Positions 223 to 47,046 of a stretch of 64,000 nt of DNA are shown piece by piece. Each line of letters starts with the position of its first letter. Position 1 is the stretch's first letter. The notes beneath the pieces were generated by a model. The model ran no database searches, was not told the DNA's origin, and worked only from the letters and a program-made list of their open reading frames with translations. Where the stretch lies: assembly GCA_022827885.1 (NCBI GenBank), contig JAJEIP010000019.1, positions 27,209-91,208 on the forward strand, given 5' to 3'. Position numbers and translations under genes: made by a program. The stretch comes from Candidatus Poribacteria bacterium. GTDB lineage: Bacteria > Poribacteria > WGA-4E > WGA-3G.

Positions 223-1749
223 ATGAACAAACTCTATTTCGGCGATAATCTTGAAATCCTGCGAGAGATGCCCGACGAACGCGTTCATCTGATATGCACC
301 GACCCACCCTTCAACTCCGGGCGCGATTACAATACCTTCCTCGGTGACTCCCTTGCACAAAAGAAGGCGTTCACCGATACATGGACGTGGGATACCGCTG
401 CACAAAACGCTCGTGCCGACATCGAACAACATGCATTTTCCAGCGATACCTACAAGGCATTGGATACCTGTCTGAAGGGTTATGATTTAGTTCTACAAAA
501 CGCGGTCTCCGGCAACAAAGGCGCGATGCGCGCATACCTTGCTTTTATGGGGCCCCGCCTCGCCGAGATGCATCGTGTACTCACACCAAATGGTAGTATA
601 TACTTGCACTGCGATCCGACTGCCTCACACTACCTCAAAGGCATGATGGATGCTATCTGGGATCAGGAAAACCATAGTAAGAATGAATCTTTTCGGAATG
701 AAATCGTGTGGTCATATCGTCGTTGGCCTGCAAAACATCCGAATTTTCAGCGAATGCACGACGTTATCTTGCGTTATGCTAAAGGCACAAATGTAACTTG
801 GAATCAACTATACGAACCAAGACCGGCATCAACCCTCAAAAGATTTGGGAGTAAGAAAATCAAGAGTGCCTTCGCGCAAGATGGGAAACGCATACCTTCT
901 GAGATGATGGGTGAAGAATCCGAAGGGGTACCCCTCAGGGATGTGTGGGAAATAAGTGTAATTGCCCCATCTGCCAAGGAACGCCTCGGTTACCCCACAC
1001 AGAAACCGCTCGCCCTTTATGAACGCATGATAAAAGCTTCCAGCAATGAAGGCGATATTGTGTTGGATCCGTTCTGTGGTTGCGGGACAACTATTGATGC
1101 CGCACATACCCTTAATCGACAGTGGATGGGTATAGACATTACAATCCTCGCTTTGGATCCGATGCGGCAACGGTTGACAGACCGACATGGATTAGAGCCT
1201 TCCGTTGACTACCAAATCGAAGGCTATCCCACCAACATGCAGGAAGTCCGCAGACTTCTAAAAGATGGCGATAGACGGAAATATCACGACTTTTCCAATT
1301 GGGCAGTGACGAGGCTGGGACTCAGACCAACGAAAGACGTTGGGGATGGCGGTCTGGATGGTGTTGGTCAAGTTACTTTATGGAATCCGCAGGTCATGAA
1401 AGAAACGGAGGCACGTATTCTCGCTGAAGTCAAAACTGGTAAACCGACGATCACCCAAGTTCGTGCCTTCTGCCGTGTGATGGATAAAAACAACGCCGAA
1501 GTTGGTGTTTTTATTACTCTTGAACCCGTAACCGCGAGCATGCGGCAAGAGGCACAGGATATGGGCCGTTTTGAGCACAACCACCAGACCTACCCGCGCC
1601 TCCAATTCTGGCAGATAGATGATGAATACTTCAATAACCCAGATATTATCAACACCCTCGTCCGCTTACCGGACGCGTGGAGGCTCCGTCCAACCCAGAA
1701 GTCCGAACGCTACGTCGACGATCAACAGATGCAATTTCTGCGTGGATAG
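223..1749 (+). CDS. Beta-class N6-adenine/N4-cytosine DNA methyltransferase fused to a C-terminal Mrr-type restriction-endonuclease-like domain
   Basis: 508-aa ORF. The catalytic DPPF motif (ICTDPPFNSG) comes first and the SAM-binding motif (VLDPFCGCGTTIDAA) later, which is the beta-class order. The C-terminal ~130 aa show an Mrr_cat-like pattern: GDGGLDGVG, then AEVK, then GVFITL. Confidence 0.8.
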   Translation: MNKLYFGDNLEILREMPDERVHLICTDPPFNSGRDYNTFLGDSLAQKKAFTDTWTWDTAAQNARADIEQHAFSSDTYKALDTCLKGYDLVLQNAVSGNKGAMRAYLAFMGPRLAEMHRVLTPNGSIYLHCDPTASHYLKGMMDAIWDQENHSKNESFRNEIVWSYRRWPAKHPNFQRMHDVILRYAKGTNVTWNQLYEPRPASTLKRFGSKKIKSAFAQDGKRIPSEMMGEESEGVPLRDVWEISVIAPSAKERLGYPTQKPLALYERMIKASSNEGDIVLDPFCGCGTTIDAAHTLNRQWMGIDITILALDPMRQRLTDRHGLEPSVDYQIEGYPTNMQEVRRLLKDGDRRKYHDFSNWAVTRLGLRPTKDVGDGGLDGVGQVTLWNPQVMKETEARILAEVKTGKPTITQVRAFCRVMDKNNAEVGVFITLEPVTASMRQEAQDMGRFEHNHQTYPRLQFWQIDDEYFNNPDIINTLVRLPDAWRLRPTQKSERYVDDQQMQFLRG

Positions 1750-6178: not shown

Positions 6179-7747
6179 GTGAGCATAAACAGGAAGATAC
6201 CCACACCCGAAGAAATAGAAAAAGAATTCCAAGAATTCGTCCAACAGAAATATGGCGGGAGCGTCCGTTTAATTAACGCATCCGCCAATGAACCCTCCCC
6301 TGAAGGAGAAACAGAAGCGCCTGAGCCGAAAAAAACCTTCGATCTGAAATTCGACCTCAAACCGAAGGATATCAAGCAATACCTCGACCGATACGTCATC
6401 AAACAGGACGAGGCAAAGAAGGCACTCGCTATCGCCGTCTGTGACCACTACAATCACGTTCGGGAATGCCACGAAGACCCAACCGCCGCGGATGCGGATT
6501 ACTCCAAACAGAACATCGTCATGCTCGGACCGACCGGTGTCGGCAAGACCTACCTCATCCGACACATCGCCAAACTCATCGGCGTGCCGTTCGTCAAAGC
6601 GGATGCGACTCGATTCAGCGAAACCGGTTACGTCGGTGCCAACGTTGACGACTTAATCCGTGAACTGGTAACCCAAGCGGAAGACAATCTCGAACTCGCA
6701 CAATACGGCATCATCTATCTCGACGAAGCGGACAAAATCGCGACACCGCCAAATATCATTGGACGCGATGTGAGCGGGCGCGGTGTGCAGATTGGACTTC
6801 TGAAATTGATGGAGGAAACCGAAGTGGATCTGCGTAGCGGGAACGATGTCGCCTCACAGATGCGTGCCGCTATGGAATTTCAGAAAAGCGGCAAGGTCGA
6901 GAAAGAGGTTATCAACACACGGCACATCCTTTTCATCATCAGCGGTGCGTTCACGGGTATGGCAGATATTATCAAGAAACGTATGCATCAAAGCAAAATC
7001 GGCTTCAATGCTGAGATTACCAGCCAAACCGATGACACGGAAACCCAGTATTTCGAGAACATCACACCGAAAGACTTCATAGACTTCGGCTTTGAACCCG
7101 AGTTTATCGGACGACTGCCAGTCCATGTCGTTTGCACGGAGCTCGGCGTAGATGACCTGTTCTATATCCTGAAACACTCCGAAGGTTCCATTATCCGTCA
7201 ATACGAAAACGCCTTTCGTGCGTATGGTATCACGGTCCTGTTTTCAGAGTGCGGTCTACAACGCATCGCCGAAAAAGCGATTGCGCAAAAAACAGGGGCG
7301 CGTGCCTTAATGACGGTTTGCGAAAAGGTCTTGCGCGACTATAAATTTGAACTCCCCTCCACCGGTGTTGAGGAATTCGTTGTCACTGCTGAAGTTGTCG
7401 ACGCACCTGATGTCGAATTAAAGCGAATCACCGCGGAACCGGACTACAACCGCAGGACCGTGATGTGTGAGCAGGTTCGCCGATATGAAGCACAATTTCA
7501 CACAGAACATCAATTGCAAATTCAGTTCGACGCTGAAGCGACTGCGCTTATTTGTGAACGGGCGATTTCAGAGGCACAAACCGTCCAGCAGGTCTGTGAT
7601 CAACTCCTGGGTAGTTATCAGCACGGGCTAAACTTAATTAAGCAGAACACGGGACAATCCACATTCACCTTTCCAAAGGCTGTTTTGGAAAACCCAGATG
7701 AAGTCCTCGAAGAGTGGATTCGTGAATCTTACACCACAAAACGTTGA
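6179..7747 (+). CDS. ClpX-like AAA+ ATPase lacking the N-terminal zinc-binding domain, with a ~130-aa C-terminal extension
   Basis: GTG start. Walker A GPTGVGKT, pore loop GYVG, Walker B IIYLDEADK, IGF-like loop (KIGFNAE). No C4 zinc cluster at the N-terminus. Confidence 0.75.
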   Translation: MSINRKIPTPEEIEKEFQEFVQQKYGGSVRLINASANEPSPEGETEAPEPKKTFDLKFDLKPKDIKQYLDRYVIKQDEAKKALAIAVCDHYNHVRECHEDPTAADADYSKQNIVMLGPTGVGKTYLIRHIAKLIGVPFVKADATRFSETGYVGANVDDLIRELVTQAEDNLELAQYGIIYLDEADKIATPPNIIGRDVSGRGVQIGLLKLMEETEVDLRSGNDVASQMRAAMEFQKSGKVEKEVINTRHILFIISGAFTGMADIIKKRMHQSKIGFNAEITSQTDDTETQYFENITPKDFIDFGFEPEFIGRLPVHVVCTELGVDDLFYILKHSEGSIIRQYENAFRAYGITVLFSECGLQRIAEKAIAQKTGARALMTVCEKVLRDYKFELPSTGVEEFVVTAEVVDAPDVELKRITAEPDYNRRTVMCEQVRRYEAQFHTEHQLQIQFDAEATALICERAISEAQTVQQVCDQLLGSYQHGLNLIKQNTGQSTFTFPKAVLENPDEVLEEWIRESYTTKR

Positions 7748-7856
7748 ATAGTTGCCAGTCACAAGAGACTTTTGTTAAACGAAAATCTCTTTACTGACCA
7801 ACCTCACCGTCATGCCGACTGCCGGCTGACAGCTCTCAAAACTAATTACGAAGATT

Positions 7857-8597
7857 ATGAACACCGAACAGAAGAGACCGCAACGTCCTGAACCCCCGAA
7901 TATTCAAGAAATCGGCGCGCCCCTCGACGGGAAACCACAAGTTAGCGACCGGCGTTTGTTCTTTCAACTGCATGTCTTTAAAGAGTGCTTCGACCACAGA
8001 CTTATCACTAAGATACTTGAGAACGGATGTCTAAACGCAGTGCTATACGACGATCTAAACCATCCGACAGGGATCGGTGTGCTGTTCATCTCAGAGGATC
8101 CAGCGGTGTTAATGGCGGAATCACGAAGTCTACTCGTAAAGGCACAGGACGCGCCTCAGCTGTCATATCGTCCAGAAATGACCATGACCGGTCGAACCTA
8201 TTCAAGTGGTAGAGAACCGAATCTGGAAGAGTGGCTCCTCAACAAACCGCTCCAAAACGTTCTCAACCCCGATTTTCGATGGGCGATTTGGTATCCCTTG
8301 CGCCGAAGCCCTGAATTCTATCGTCTTGAACACCGTGAACGGGGTCGCATCTTAGGCGAACACGCTTTGCTGGGGCGCGGTTATGCCGCAGGTGGATATG
8401 CCAGTGACATCCGACTCGCCTGCTTCGGATTGGATACAAACGACAATGAATTCGTTATCGGAGTGGTCGGGCCCGATTTACATCCGTTATCGCGTTTGAT
8501 TCAGGATATGCGTCAAACAGAACAGACCACCAAATACATCGAATCCCTTGGTCCCTTCTTTGTTGGAAAGGTTCGGAAGCAATTTTTTAACAATTGA
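7857..8597 (+). CDS. Chlorite dismutase / HemQ family protein
   Basis: 246 aa. WAIWYPLRRSPEFYRLEHRERGRILGEH matches the conserved C-terminal-domain pattern of the Cld/HemQ family. Confidence 0.65.
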   Translation: MNTEQKRPQRPEPPNIQEIGAPLDGKPQVSDRRLFFQLHVFKECFDHRLITKILENGCLNAVLYDDLNHPTGIGVLFISEDPAVLMAESRSLLVKAQDAPQLSYRPEMTMTGRTYSSGREPNLEEWLLNKPLQNVLNPDFRWAIWYPLRRSPEFYRLEHRERGRILGEHALLGRGYAAGGYASDIRLACFGLDTNDNEFVIGVVGPDLHPLSRLIQDMRQTEQTTKYIESLGPFFVGKVRKQFFNN

Positions 8598-8784
8598 ATC
8601 TGGGCACTGCTCCATTACATTACGCAGTGGTGTTTGGTTAATTCCGACTCTACTAAGGAGATGTAAGGTTATTTAAGAAGGCCGGCATAAGATCCAAGTC
8701 TACAACATTCAGAGGCAGTTAGACTTAACCGAAAACCACCGTGAAACGAAGTGGAACGGTGACCGGATGCCCATAGTTTAAAAT

Positions 8785-9510
8785 ATGAGAAATATTCTTG
8801 CAGTTTGCACAAAAGAACTCTATACCTATTTCGTTTCACCGATCGCCTATTTCGTCTGTTTCGTCTTTACAGCGATTTCGGGCTTCCTGTTCTCCATCCT
8901 GCTCATTAGTGCGAGCAACGTCGGCGGGACCGGCGGATACGTGATGGAAACCCTCTTTGGTAACATGGCGATTGTCTTACTCTTTTTCACGCCAGTGCTG
9001 ACAATGAAACTCTTTGCAGAAGAACGGAAATCGGGAACGATTGAACTACTCCTAACCTCCCCAATCACAGACGGGCAAGTGGTTCTCGGTAAATTCTTTG
9101 CGAGTTGCACACTGGTATTGATTATGCTTGGCTTAACGCTTCTGTTTCCACTCTTAACCCAACGTTTCGGTTATCTGGACAGTGGACTCCTTATGAGCGG
9201 TTATTTGGGTATCATCCTCATCAGTTCCTCCTTTCTATCATTAGGTTTGCTGATGTCATCAATGTGTAAAAACCAACTCGTCGCTGCGTTGACAAGTTTC
9301 GGGATCCTCATAACGTTATGGGTGATCGGCTCGCTCTCAGCGCGTGGTGGCCCCATAGCAAAATTTCTGAGTTACCTGTCGCTCCCTGAACACTACCGAG
9401 ATTTCTCACGCGGTATCATCCTTTTGAAAGATGTTATTTACTACGTCAGTTTCACATGTGTCTGCTTATTTGCGACGTTCAAGTCGATTGAGTCATCGAA
9501 ATGGAGATAG
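8785..9510 (+). CDS. ABC-2 type transporter permease (GldF-like)
   Basis: 241 aa with six predicted TM segments. N-terminal KELYTYFVSPIAY motif is typical of ABC-2 permeases. Followed by a GldG-like gene. Confidence 0.7.
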   Translation: MRNILAVCTKELYTYFVSPIAYFVCFVFTAISGFLFSILLISASNVGGTGGYVMETLFGNMAIVLLFFTPVLTMKLFAEERKSGTIELLLTSPITDGQVVLGKFFASCTLVLIMLGLTLLFPLLTQRFGYLDSGLLMSGYLGIILISSSFLSLGLLMSSMCKNQLVAALTSFGILITLWVIGSLSARGGPIAKFLSYLSLPEHYRDFSRGIILLKDVIYYVSFTCVCLFATFKSIESSKWR

Positions 9511-23857: not shown

Positions 23858-23884
23858 GGAGCGGTTACAAACCGCTCCTACCGA
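23858..23884 (+). repeat. REP-like hairpin (GGAGCGGTT-aca-AACCGCTCC followed by TACCGA)
   Basis: 9-bp stem, 3-nt loop, CTAC at the 3' boundary. Variant of the 44164 and 46771 elements. Confidence 0.8.
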
Positions 23885-44163: not shown

Positions 44164-44190
44164 GGTGCGGTTACAAACCGCACCTACCGG
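44164..44190 (+). repeat. REP-like hairpin (GGTGCGGTT-aca-AACCGCACC followed by TACCGG)
   Basis: 9-bp stem, 3-nt loop, CTAC at the 3' boundary. Near-identical to 46771-46797. Confidence 0.85.
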
Positions 44191-44858: not shown

Positions 44859-44882
44859 GCTGTTCCTCCCGCGTTTTAAGAA

Positions 44883-45377
44883 TTACGAGTCTATAATCGA
44901 ACGAATGTCGTCTTCACAGATAAAATCAATTGTGACACCGTTTTGACGGAGTGCGTCTCGGGCGTTCCACCATTCACTATCTACGGCCTGCAGAATAGGA
45001 GGCTTTTCGGAATGTGTAAGTGCGACGGCGATAAATTTGCGATCTGCTGGATCGAAACCCTTTAGTGCCGGGTCGGTTGGAAACTCGCGGAAGTCATTTT
45101 CCGAACCATCAGTAGGTATAATGGAAACGAAGTCACACTGCGTATCTTTGTTTGTCAGGAGCCATGCGAGAAATCTATCGCCAACATCCGAACCGCGAGA
45201 ATGAAGATTCCGCATATATTCACCAAGAATTCTCCATTCATCGTCAAGAACTAACTTCATTTCGCCAGACATGATTTGTTGAAGTTTTTCAGCACAAGTG
45301 AGAACACAACCTGCGGAGGCTTGTTGAGATCTGCCGTTGGCGACTACAGCGACATTCGTATCTACGACAACAGTCAC
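44883..45377 (-). CDS. PIN-like nuclease domain protein (candidate effector)
   Basis: 164 aa. VVVDTNVAVVANG N-terminus, then the DDEW, DPADRKFIAVAL and AVDSEW acidic positions in PIN order. 4-bp overlap with the upstream ATPase gene. Confidence 0.6.
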   Translation of the reverse strand: MTVVVDTNVAVVANGRSQQASAGCVLTCAEKLQQIMSGEMKLVLDDEWRILGEYMRNLHSRGSDVGDRFLAWLLTNKDTQCDFVSIIPTDGSENDFREFPTDPALKGFDPADRKFIAVALTHSEKPPILQAVDSEWWNARDALRQNGVTIDFICEDDIRSIIDS

Positions 45378-46630
45378 AAACCTTGCTCCTTCTTGCGCTT
45401 CATCTCGGCTTTTGTCTTCCCAACCAAATCACCCGTTGCATCCCCGAAGAAGTTTTGTGGCCAATTCGTGATGTTTCCGTAATCGTCTACGTCGAGCCTC
45501 TCGATTTCGGATACCCCTTCGTTCATTTCGCAAAAATAGAAGGCGGTGTCGTCTGCGGAAATTTTTTCCTCAGCGATCCGCCGCATTAACCGTATGAGTA
45601 GATGCTCGCTATGGCTCTCAAGAATAATTTGGAGTCGCCGATTTTTTACGACCTCAATGAGAAGATCTGCCAATTCTGATTGGACTTTCGGATGGAGGTG
45701 TGCTTCAGGTTGTTCAAGGATGAGGATACTGCCCTCAGAGACGTAATAACAGAGCACTAATACCGGTAGGACCTGCGAAACCCCGAAGCCGACATCGGTG
45801 AGTCGGACTTCGGGACCGCCCTTGTACTTTCGGACGAGAAACTCATAATCTTTTTCTCTGTCGGAGATAGGGTTGAGGCGATAAGAATCGATTAAATCTA
45901 ACCGCTGCAGCCATTCCATTACCTGTTTATCAATATCTTGAAGTTTTACTCTCTTTGAAAGGATGGCAGAAATCATCTCTTCTCCGCGCTGTCCGGTATC
46001 TTTCGGATGGTTGCCCTGCCATGCGTAACGCGAATAGGGGGATTCACGAAATGAACCGAGGTAGCAAATTCGGTGGAATAGATTCTCAAAGGCATCTTTA
46101 AGAGACTTGAAAGATTCCAAAGGGCCAAAGGGATTAGCAACACCATAGCATCGAAACAATTCTGCCCTTTCCCAATAAGATCTTAATTTGTATTTATATC
46201 CTGACAATTCCCACTCTATCTTAAATTCATGCTCACCACTTGCATAACAAAAATTATCCAAGTTCACCGAATGCTCATATTTTTTAACAACGGACATTGA
46301 GAAGGAAAGGGAATCGGTTTCAATCGGACCTAAATTTTGTCTTTCAGGCAGCTTCCATGATACAGCAACACCAAGACTCAAATCCAAGTTGTGTTGGTGA
46401 ACGGTCTCATCAAAGCCTCCCAAGTTAACAAGTGAATTATCATCACCGAAATCAATCACACCGTTCCAATTGGATGGACGCTCCACGGTCTGCTTCAGCA
46501 TGAGCAACGTTTGCAGAACGCTGGTTTTGCCGGAACTGTTCGCGCCGAAGAAACCAGTTAACGGGGCTATCTGCAATTTAGGCATATCTTTCCACGATTT
46601 GAAATTTTGCGCACTGAGTTCGGTGATCAT
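45374..46630 (-). CDS. OLD/ABC-type (AAA_15/AAA_21-like) ATPase with DUF3696-like C-terminal tail
   Basis: ATG at 46630 after GAGGT. Walker A GANSSGKTS, Walker B-like ILILEQPEAHLHP, H-loop ESHSEHL and a C-terminal NWPQNFFGD. The DNA is visibly AT-rich relative to its neighbours. Confidence 0.75.
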   Translation of the reverse strand: MITELSAQNFKSWKDMPKLQIAPLTGFFGANSSGKTSVLQTLLMLKQTVERPSNWNGVIDFGDDNSLVNLGGFDETVHQHNLDLSLGVAVSWKLPERQNLGPIETDSLSFSMSVVKKYEHSVNLDNFCYASGEHEFKIEWELSGYKYKLRSYWERAELFRCYGVANPFGPLESFKSLKDAFENLFHRICYLGSFRESPYSRYAWQGNHPKDTGQRGEEMISAILSKRVKLQDIDKQVMEWLQRLDLIDSYRLNPISDREKDYEFLVRKYKGGPEVRLTDVGFGVSQVLPVLVLCYYVSEGSILILEQPEAHLHPKVQSELADLLIEVVKNRRLQIILESHSEHLLIRLMRRIAEEKISADDTAFYFCEMNEGVSEIERLDVDDYGNITNWPQNFFGDATGDLVGKTKAEMKRKKEQGL

Positions 46631-46770
46631 GACGTATACCTCGTTTCCTGGCACAGAAAGAGGAATATTTCTGTTCTTAGACCTATCCAAATGCTGAAGA
46701 AACACCCAAGCAAATACACTCTACGGGACTCAAGAGGTTTTGAAGTATGCAAGGTTTCTATGTAAAATCC

Positions 46771-46797
46771 GGTGCGGTTGGAAACCGCACCTACCGG
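46771..46797 (+). repeat. REP-like hairpin (GGTGCGGTT-gga-AACCGCACC followed by TACCGG)
   Basis: 9-bp stem with CTAC at the 3' boundary. Degenerate relatives follow at about 46846-46866 and 46876-46912. Confidence 0.85.
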
Positions 46798-46908
46798 ACT
46801 TGGGTGCGAGGCGGTTATTTTTTTAATGAATTGATGCCTATGATACGGTAAAAAATCGCACTTACCAATTCAGGGAGGAAAACCCGGGGCAGTTGGAAAC
46901 AGACTCGG

Positions 46909-47046
46909 CTACCGCTCGCCTTGCTGGCGGATTGCGACTAACTCTTGTAGAATGCGCCTGTGGAGACGGTGTAGTTCAAGGACCATTCCGATGCCGATCG
47001 CAAGCGACACACCCGCTGCGAGAATAAGTTTCTTTTTTAAGGACAT
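46909..47046 (-). CDS. Possible small membrane protein (45 aa)
   Basis: Not in the ORF track (under 60 aa). ATG at 47046 lies 6 nt after AGGAG. Translation MSLKKKLILAAGVSLAIGIGMVLELHRLHRRILQELVAIRQQGER has one TM helix. Its 3' end overlaps a decayed REP. Confidence 0.3.
   Translation of the reverse strand: MSLKKKLILAAGVSLAIGIGMVLELHRLHRRILQELVAIRQQGER

Follow-up and report, generated by a model that had tools for sequence, protein, structure and literature searches.

HEC-03 (Hma-embedded candidate 03) is an anti-phage system composed of an ATP-binding cassette (ABC) ATPase and a PIN-domain protein, and was found inside Hma systems (Payne et al., bioRxiv 10.1101/2024.01.29.577857). Once cloned in E. 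coli, it reduced phage plaquing, an effect that depended on the presence of both genes, and induction with isopropyl β-D-1-thiogalactopyranoside (IPTG) made it toxic; the authors regarded its PIN domain as VapC-like and did not settle by what means the ATPase perceives infection (bioRxiv 10.1101/2024.01.29.577857). The present work concerns a pair of minus-strand genes carried by a stretch of 64,000 nucleotides (nt) of DNA from Candidatus Poribacteria, a sponge-symbiont phylum, this whole stretch being hereafter referred to as the window. In a first interpretation made from the letters only, i.e., the sequence-only reading, the pair had been put forward as an undescribed defence module, in which an ABC-type ATPase gene overlaps the gene of a PIN-like nuclease. 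As detailed below, the pair is a new and divergent member of HEC-03, a system already named and tested, and not a new system.

Besides HEC-03, the pair is reminiscent of Menshen, composed of NsnA, NsnB and NsnC (Millman 2022; PMC12065111), with which it shares an NsnB-type ATPase of AAA_15 and DUF3696 build, a non-canonical Walker B and a PIN-like partner. In a 2025 analysis, NsnB was predicted to form tetramers, in which the PIN-like domain at the N-terminus of NsnC is gripped by DUF3696 tails acting in pairs, an arrangement resembling the ATPase-effector complexes of Septu and PARIS (PMC12065111). NsnB-NsnC is probably the closest evolutionary relative of the pair and the best template for the way in which the ATPase would hold its partner. 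The differences are (i) the pair of the window has no adjoining NsnA (DUF262/ParB) gene, the upstream neighbours being an open reading frame (ORF) of 44 amino acids (aa) and icd and the downstream one the NIPSNAP gene, (ii) NsnC combines an inactive PIN domain with a C-terminal toxin domain, while the protein of the window is a bare PIN domain with its acidic residues kept and no match to NsnC, and (iii) the Walker B reported for NsnB displays E-N, that of HEC-03 E-Q. The Pfam families listed for the ORFs of the window, 25 of the 58 matched in total, do not include DUF262. HEC-03 looks like the same ATPase-PIN pairing minus the NsnA DNA sensor, where a PIN domain with kept catalytic residues can itself be the toxin.

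In PARIS (AriA-AriB) and Septu (PtuA-PtuB), an ABC ATPase oligomer is likewise associated with a small nuclease effector, which is released or activated on phage sensing, but the effectors are Toprim (AriB) or HNH (PtuB) proteins and not PIN proteins. Regarding the features of the OLD/Gabija/PARIS and Septu systems, neither Toprim nor HNH was found in the pair by Pfam, PADLOC and NCBIfam searches; the ATPase gave weak AriA matches (1.5e-29), and the NCBIfam PtuA model scored 24 bits against a cut-off of 500. With VapBC, the pair would have in common a PIN-fold, Mg-dependent RNase toxin, and VapC structures are present among the fold matches of the small protein (3h87_B, as well as 7vwo and 5wz4 from a first, low-confidence model); on the other hand, no VapB gene precedes the PIN gene, the preceding gene encodes an ATPase of 418 aa, and the PIN domain of the window is divergent.

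Assignment of the pair to HEC-03

A search of PADLOC-DB v2 pairs the large protein, over its full length, with model PDLC04148 (HEC-03; E-value 1.3e-112, 375 bits), the best of its 135 PADLOC matches, and the small protein with model PDLC04147 (HEC-03; E 3.8e-30), residues 1-156 of the latter protein aligning with model positions 1-153 of 159. The next PADLOC matches of the ATPase are Menshen NsnB (7.7e-65, 218 bits) and PDC-M55A (1.5e-54), the AriA, GajA, AbiLi, MADS and HEC-01/02 models covering the shared ATPase motifs only; in NCBIfam, no model reached its cut-off for the ATPase or the PIN protein. Of note, the subunit letters are swapped between sources, HEC-03A being the ATPase and HEC-03B the PIN protein in the paper, whereas the PADLOC-DB model HEC-03A is the small protein, which constitutes an annotation trap. 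With the described HEC-03, the pair of the window shares the same two families over their full length, the same gene order and coupling, and the association of an ABC ATPase with a VapC-like PIN protein; it differs in standing alone among housekeeping genes, without a surrounding Hma system, and in its low identity (36-41%) to those copies from proteobacterial plasmids that were examined. The pair can with good confidence be considered a chromosomal, stand-alone anti-phage copy of HEC-03 in a Candidatus Poribacteria genome. The term "undescribed" in the sequence-only reading, which had itself named assignment to a known system as its refutation, is consequently withdrawn, PADLOC assigning both proteins to an experimentally tested system, while the call of a defence module is supported by HEC-03 membership and by the defence-like neighbours met elsewhere.

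All features of the two genes are on the minus strand. The HEC-03 ABC-type ATPase gene, with an AAA_15/AAA_21 core and a C-terminal DUF3696 tail, is located at 45374..46630 (PADLOC, Pfam and homolog alignments), and the gene of the PIN-like nuclease, of 164 aa and with a GTG start, at 44883..45377 (PADLOC, AlphaFold and Foldseek). They overlap by 4 nt at 45374..45377, where GTGA, as read on the coding strand, superimposes the GTG start of the PIN gene over the TGA stop of the ATPase gene; the overlap and the coupling proposed for it had been correctly recognised. An ORF of 443 aa, opening at an upstream GTG, extends over 45374..46705; alignments with homologs of the large protein start no earlier than residue 22-26 of this ORF and a GAGG motif lies 8 nt upstream of the ATG at 46630, therefore the true ATPase product has 418 aa.

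Pfam identifies AAA_15 (7.6e-28), AAA_21 (1.4e-23) and DUF3696 (2.5e-13) in the ATPase, together with weak SMC_N and RecF matches, and the protein matches the OLD-family PDB entry 6p74 at 2.9e-6, suggesting an ABC/OLD-type ATPase. Every motif announced for it could be located, namely (i) the Walker A or P-loop GANSSGKTS at 46520..46546, whose G..GKT is conserved in an alignment of 83 family sequences, (ii) the Walker B ILILEQPEAHLHP at 45689..45727, (iii) the H-loop ESHSEHL at 45599..45619, both of these read in the sequence and in the family alignment, and (iv) the DUF3696 tail including NWPQNFFGD at 45425..45562 (PF12476, 2.5e-13, residues 382-427 of the 443-aa ORF). The segment between Walker A and Walker B is of a different nature, with almost no conserved columns from aa 81 to 240 in the 83-sequence alignment. 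Its AT-richest, hypervariable part (aa ~50-165; 46141..46480, GC 0.41) is contained in a larger variable segment (aa ~50-250; 45881-46480), the position of which matches that of the "Insert 1" of ABC proteins.

Across the 83 family members, the Walker B, i.e., hhhhE-Q-P-E..HLHP, is essentially invariant and E-Q replaces the canonical D-E. As such, a glutamine occupies the usual position of the catalytic glutamate of ABC ATPases in the whole HEC-03 ATPase family. Because a glutamine replacing the catalytic glutamate traps the ATP-bound dimer in other ABC ATPases, the HEC-03 ATPase may be an ATP-binding switch rather than a hydrolysing motor.

For the small protein, an exhaustive phmmer search yielded 1,200 cluster representatives, 765 of them at E ≤ 1e-10; of the 150 that were listed, nearly all are 155-185 aa long. 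In an alignment of 53 family members, with 33-67% identity to the protein of the window, the invariant positions are D6, D45, Y54, D112, D133 and C154, and positions conserved at 90% or more comprise, among others, T7, N8, V9, E53, D109, R113, K114 and F115. The four invariant aspartates, encoded at 45360-45362 (D6), 45243-45245 (D45), 45042-45044 (D112) and 44979-44981 (D133), are those of the four PIN acidic motifs pointed out by the sequence-only reading. PIN_3 is the sole recurrent Pfam family among the members (11/53, best E 0.002).

An AlphaFold model built from a diverse alignment has a predicted local distance difference test score (pLDDT) of 97.7 and a predicted template modelling score (pTM) of 0.92, with five strands alternating with helices; it superseded a first model based on 42 close homologs (pLDDT 73.7), for which the fold matches were uninformative. 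Along the predicted secondary structure, D6 comes after strand 1, D45 is at the end of strand 2, D112 is close to where the helix after strand 3 begins and D133 comes after strand 4, which we take to be the pattern expected for a PIN acidic quartet; an insertion of ~25 residues separates strand 3 from the next helix. The best Foldseek matches in the PDB are PIN-like, namely the PIN module of an archaeal RuvB-like helicase (5yww, probability 0.98) and TTHA0540 (3ix7, 0.95), and further PIN-like matches include HARP and PRORP RNase P, SMG6, VapC Rv0301, Nob1 and EST1A; ExoIX and viral PIN-domain proteins are also found among the fold matches. When the PDB was searched with the sequence and profile of the small protein, all matches obtained were spurious (SecA and a de novo TIM barrel). 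Taken together, alignment and model suggest that the small protein belongs to the PIN-like superfamily, as a divergent member whose acidic site is intact.

The association of the two genes is by no means restricted to Poribacteria. A species-level scan (one genome per species) retrieved at least 550 relatives of the small protein, of which the best 79 loci were listed, distributed among Poribacteria, Chloroflexota, Cyanobacteria, Planctomycetota, Acidobacteriota, Myxococcota, Gemmatimonadota, Aminicenantes and Thiotrichaceae. In 74 of the 76 newly fetched loci, which represent more than seven phyla, the PIN gene is immediately preceded by a co-oriented ATPase homolog; of the two remaining loci, L089 is at a contig edge and L143, from a metagenome-assembled genome (MAG) of Acidobacteria, has its ATPase and PIN genes split by an insertion sequence with an rve-family transposase (6991-7884). 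All the ATPase-PIN junctions are tight (96/96), with a 1-nt overlap in 43 cases, a 4-nt overlap in 34 and the rest between a 15-nt gap and a 20-nt overlap. In a metagenomic protein of 479 aa (P0267), the C-terminal part of the ATPase is even fused to the PIN domain. The ATPase and PIN genes form an obligately linked, translationally coupled operon across phyla, and the co-occurrence of homologs called for as a check of the defence module is verified.

In four HEC-03 loci, the PIN gene is directly followed by a gene of the RNA_ligase family (PF09414, E 1e-31 to 1e-34), i.e., in Azotobacter and Aeromonas plasmids (L146, 8927-9619; L147, 8928-9629), in the above-mentioned Acidobacteria MAG (L143, 8414-9226) and in an Archangium MAG (L121, ~8510-9160); it is absent from the window. 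The RNA ligase may represent a third component or a partner in RNA repair and, because its gene directly follows the PIN gene at these loci, it points to RNA as the substrate of the PIN protein.

The icd-NIPSNAP site in Poribacteria

As first proposed, the pair is flanked by the NIPSNAP gene (Pfam 1e-41) and icd (Iso_dh, 3e-90), and mutS is located ~1 kb past NIPSNAP. A conserved ORF of 44 aa, MSLKKKLILAAGVSLAIGIGMVLELHRLHRRILQELVAIRQQGER, had been missed between icd and the pair (46912-47046, minus strand); the N-terminal half of its product is hydrophobic, it found no match in a Pfam search, and its DNA is 78-91% conserved beside icd in Poribacteria, whether the pair is present or not. NIPSNAP, icd and mutS are 90-100% identical to those of dozens of Poribacteria genomes. 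Of about 55 closely related genomes, about 20 carry the pair at the icd-NIPSNAP site. At the empty site, icd is ~210 bp from NIPSNAP (L008, L020, L021, L024, L031 and L038). In blastn comparisons with five of these genomes (L008, L020, L024, L031 and L038), homology runs from icd to the small ORF (~46909) and then jumps to ~44875-44887 at NIPSNAP. The variable or inserted segment, delimited at 44881..46908 against the empty-site genomes, amounts to ~2 kb between the conserved 44-aa ORF and the ribosome-binding region of NIPSNAP, and comprises the pair and ~200 bp of upstream leader.

Other cargo is found at the same site, namely (i) a TnpB/IS605 OrfB gene (L011, 6106-7215, minus strand), (ii) a gene for a DUF6602 NucC-like PD-DExK protein (L014, 6804-7742, plus strand), (iii) the gene of a recurrent 121-aa protein devoid of family match (L006, L007, L010, L011 and L014), and (iv) a truncated HEC-03 ATPase gene without PIN gene (L018, 6829-7908, plus strand). 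In some genomes, icd is beyond the 8-kb flank and the ORFs upstream of NIPSNAP appear by eye to be sulfatase-, dioxygenase- and amidase-like. The icd-NIPSNAP site is a general insertion hotspot in Poribacteria. Several Poribacteria genomes or MAGs also contain multiple, diverged copies of HEC-03 at different sites, i.e., L074 and L081 (OZ242036.1), L083 and L131 (CBDBMC010000001.1), L077 and L086, L040 and L098, and L044 and L076.

The GC content of the pair is about 5-6 points under that of its neighbours. The ATPase gene, whose GC of 0.450 compares with a mean of 0.509 (z = -2.5), is the lowest of the 44 compared ORFs of at least 150 aa in the window, and the PIN gene has a GC of 0.463 and a GC at third codon positions (GC3) of 0.40 (z = -3.5). 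The AT-richness described as clear is real, then, but modest. Because of presence or absence at the icd-NIPSNAP site, together with low GC, the view of the pair as a horizontally acquired island is supported. Direct repeats were not seen by eye at the insertion edges; integration linked to a tRNA was rejected since the window contains no tRNA, and an Rfam search of the window found no family.

The island had also been thought to be bracketed by two near-identical hairpins resembling repetitive extragenic palindromes (REP), at 44164 and 46771. Both exist and have a 25-nt core in common (0 expected by chance), but they are not brackets. The palindrome GGTGCGGTTnnAAACCGCACCTACC, with a stable 9-bp stem, occurs in three copies of the same orientation in the window (23858-23882, 44164-44188 and 46771-46795), exact copies are present in 16 of the 145 fetched loci, dispersed in Poribacteria, and the sequence shared by the hairpins at 44164 and 46771 is only a palindromic core of ~30 nt. 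The copy at 44164 is a terminator-like stem-loop 3' of NIPSNAP, hence beyond NIPSNAP from the pair, and its equivalent is present in genomes lacking the pair (L006 and L014). The third copy, the dispersed family, the sharing limited to ~30 nt and the presence in pair-less genomes rule out the hairpins as island borders or target-site repeats. The copy at 46771..46795 (minus strand), which forms a stem-loop in the ATPase leader, 3' of the 44-aa ORF (RNA fold -19.4 kcal/mol, z = -3.3), probably shields the pair against transcription of icd and the small ORF. Besides the terminator-like hairpin 3' of NIPSNAP, a scan for promoters and terminators revealed nothing above shuffled expectation.

At this very site, in related Poribacteria, alleles of the pair are only 60-88% identical between flanks that are 90-100% identical. 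A sliding-window comparison of mosaic alleles (loci L001-L003, L030 and L070-L072) resolves the divergence into two polymorphic blocks, i.e., nt 151-750 of the ATPase gene (aa ~50-250, Insert 1) and nt 1-250 of the PIN gene (45128-45377 in the window). Between non-matching alleles, nucleotide identity falls to 41-72% in the ATPase insert and 52-65% in the N-terminal half of the PIN protein, as against 75-93% for the DUF3696 tail, the Walker A block and the catalytic core. Assortment of the two polymorphic blocks is independent: L002 and L003 carry the insert allele of the window with a different PIN allele, and L030, L070 and L071 show the reverse. Such a pattern agrees with recombination shuffling two variable surfaces, one of the sensor and the other of the effector.

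Predicted mode of action and alternative explanations

Outside the Poribacteria, HEC-03 keeps company with defence genes. Among 99 immediate neighbours in 27 non-Poribacteria loci are HmaA/B/C, mad2 (5), type I and type IIG restriction-modification (RM) genes and HEC-01, and copies of HEC-03 reside on conjugative or mobilizable plasmids of Aeromonas and Azotobacter; no homolog of the small protein was found in a phage genome collection. In the predicted mode of action, the ATPase would be the sensor and regulator and the PIN protein the effector. An NsnB-like ABC ATPase, probably a dimer or tetramer, would bind the PIN protein and keep it inactive, a contact likely made via the DUF3696 tails by analogy with the predicted NsnB-NsnC complex of Menshen. 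The hypervariable Insert 1 region would sense a phage cue and the binding of ATP, possibly with slow or no hydrolysis considering the invariant E-Q Walker B, would switch the complex, upon which the released or activated PIN nuclease would cut RNA (tRNA, rRNA or mRNA) and the infected cell would be arrested.

A number of points weigh against reading the pair as a working HEC-03 defence system of this kind. At the protein level, the large subunit is classified as ABC/OLD-type from its sequence only, the sole Pfam hint for the small protein is a sub-threshold PIN_3 match (E 0.041, 15 bits against a cut-off of 27), and the spatial clustering of its four aspartates is an expectation drawn from their positions in the predicted secondary structure. 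The PIN or nuclease fold, which was to be checked on a structural model, is upheld by the model of pLDDT 97.7 and its PIN-like top matches, but the Foldseek scores are modest (best PDB E 0.017, TM-scores of 0.41-0.45 and none at E ≤ 0.001). Regarding the mechanism, the DUF3696 tail does not co-vary with the PIN alleles, its nucleotide identity being 77-93% whichever PIN allele is present, and for this reason the tail-PIN contact is drawn by analogy only; in a September 2026 preprint, HEC-03 is still listed with a demonstrated activity and an undescribed mechanism. As for the host, which is uncultured, a phenotype is known for no Poribacteria copy, that of the window included, and the pair is solitary among housekeeping neighbours, the sole other defence-like gene being a DNA methylase 43 kb off. 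The latter gene (223-1746, plus strand) encodes an N6_N4 DNA methyltransferase of 508 aa (Pfam 3e-47; PADLOC type II methyltransferase, 4e-61). A defence island was not found within the window, the other PADLOC matches listed (GajB etc.) corresponding to generic UvrD-helicase.

The most serious alternative, yet an unlikely one, is a toxin-antitoxin (TA) or addiction module, in which the ATPase would neutralise a VapC-like PIN toxin and the pair would be maintained by post-segregational killing rather than for phage defence. Such a role would suit the PIN/VapC-like fold, the toxicity of HEC-03 on induction and the tight coupling of the genes, as well as the annotation of AAA_21 as "putative AbiEii toxin, type IV TA" and the Hok/Gef and AbiEii genes adjoining plasmid copies. 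However, the pair includes no VapB-like small DNA-binding antitoxin, the partner being an ABC ATPase of 418 aa; in the tested homolog, phage protection needs both genes; and the ATPase-first order and the hypervariable insert are in line with a sensor. A TA role and a role in abortive infection are in any case compatible with each other.

Considerably less probable is a reduced Menshen, i.e., NsnB-NsnC after loss of the NsnA DUF262 sensor. While the NsnB match (7.7e-65), the AAA_15 and DUF3696 build, the non-canonical Walker B and the PIN-like domain with which NsnC opens are all in keeping with such a descent, the HEC-03 models score far above NsnB and no DUF262/ParB gene adjoins the pair, nor is any required to explain the 74 linked loci. 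Moreover, the small protein is PIN-only, with the acidic residues that are lost in the inactive PIN domains (inPINs) of Menshen, no C-terminal effector and no NsnC match. Finally, a housekeeping pair for RNA processing or DNA repair, with a RecF/SMC-like ATPase and a PIN/FEN-like nuclease standing near mutS by chance, can practically be discarded, the weak SMC_N and RecF matches, the ExoIX and RuvB-like helicase PIN modules among the fold matches and the position of mutS ~1 kb past NIPSNAP being confronted with a patchy distribution (about 20 of about 55 related genomes), alleles of 60-88% identity between flanks of 90-100%, multi-copy MAGs, plasmid carriage and RM, Hma or MADS neighbours.

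For the HEC-03 assignment, the defence call of the sequence-only reading was correct, yet a run of PADLOC would already have named the system and there is no discovery of a new one. Its value is as comparative material for the mechanism of HEC-03, for which the E-Q Walker B, the kinship with Menshen and the RNA-ligase third gene are leads. Tentatively, HEC-03 in Poribacteria could be viewed as a recombining, two-module polymorphic locus at a fixed hotspot, in which the insert of the ATPase would be the sensor and the N-terminal half of the PIN protein the effector or target-recognition surface, the PIN protein attacking RNA and the third-gene RNA ligase re-sealing it in some lineages. If true, HEC-03 would be a reversible RNA-damage switch and not a suicide system. 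With dozens of near-syntenic genomes displaying empty, filled and mosaic alleles at one site, the Poribacteria constitute a natural data set for mapping the pressure of the arms race on both proteins.

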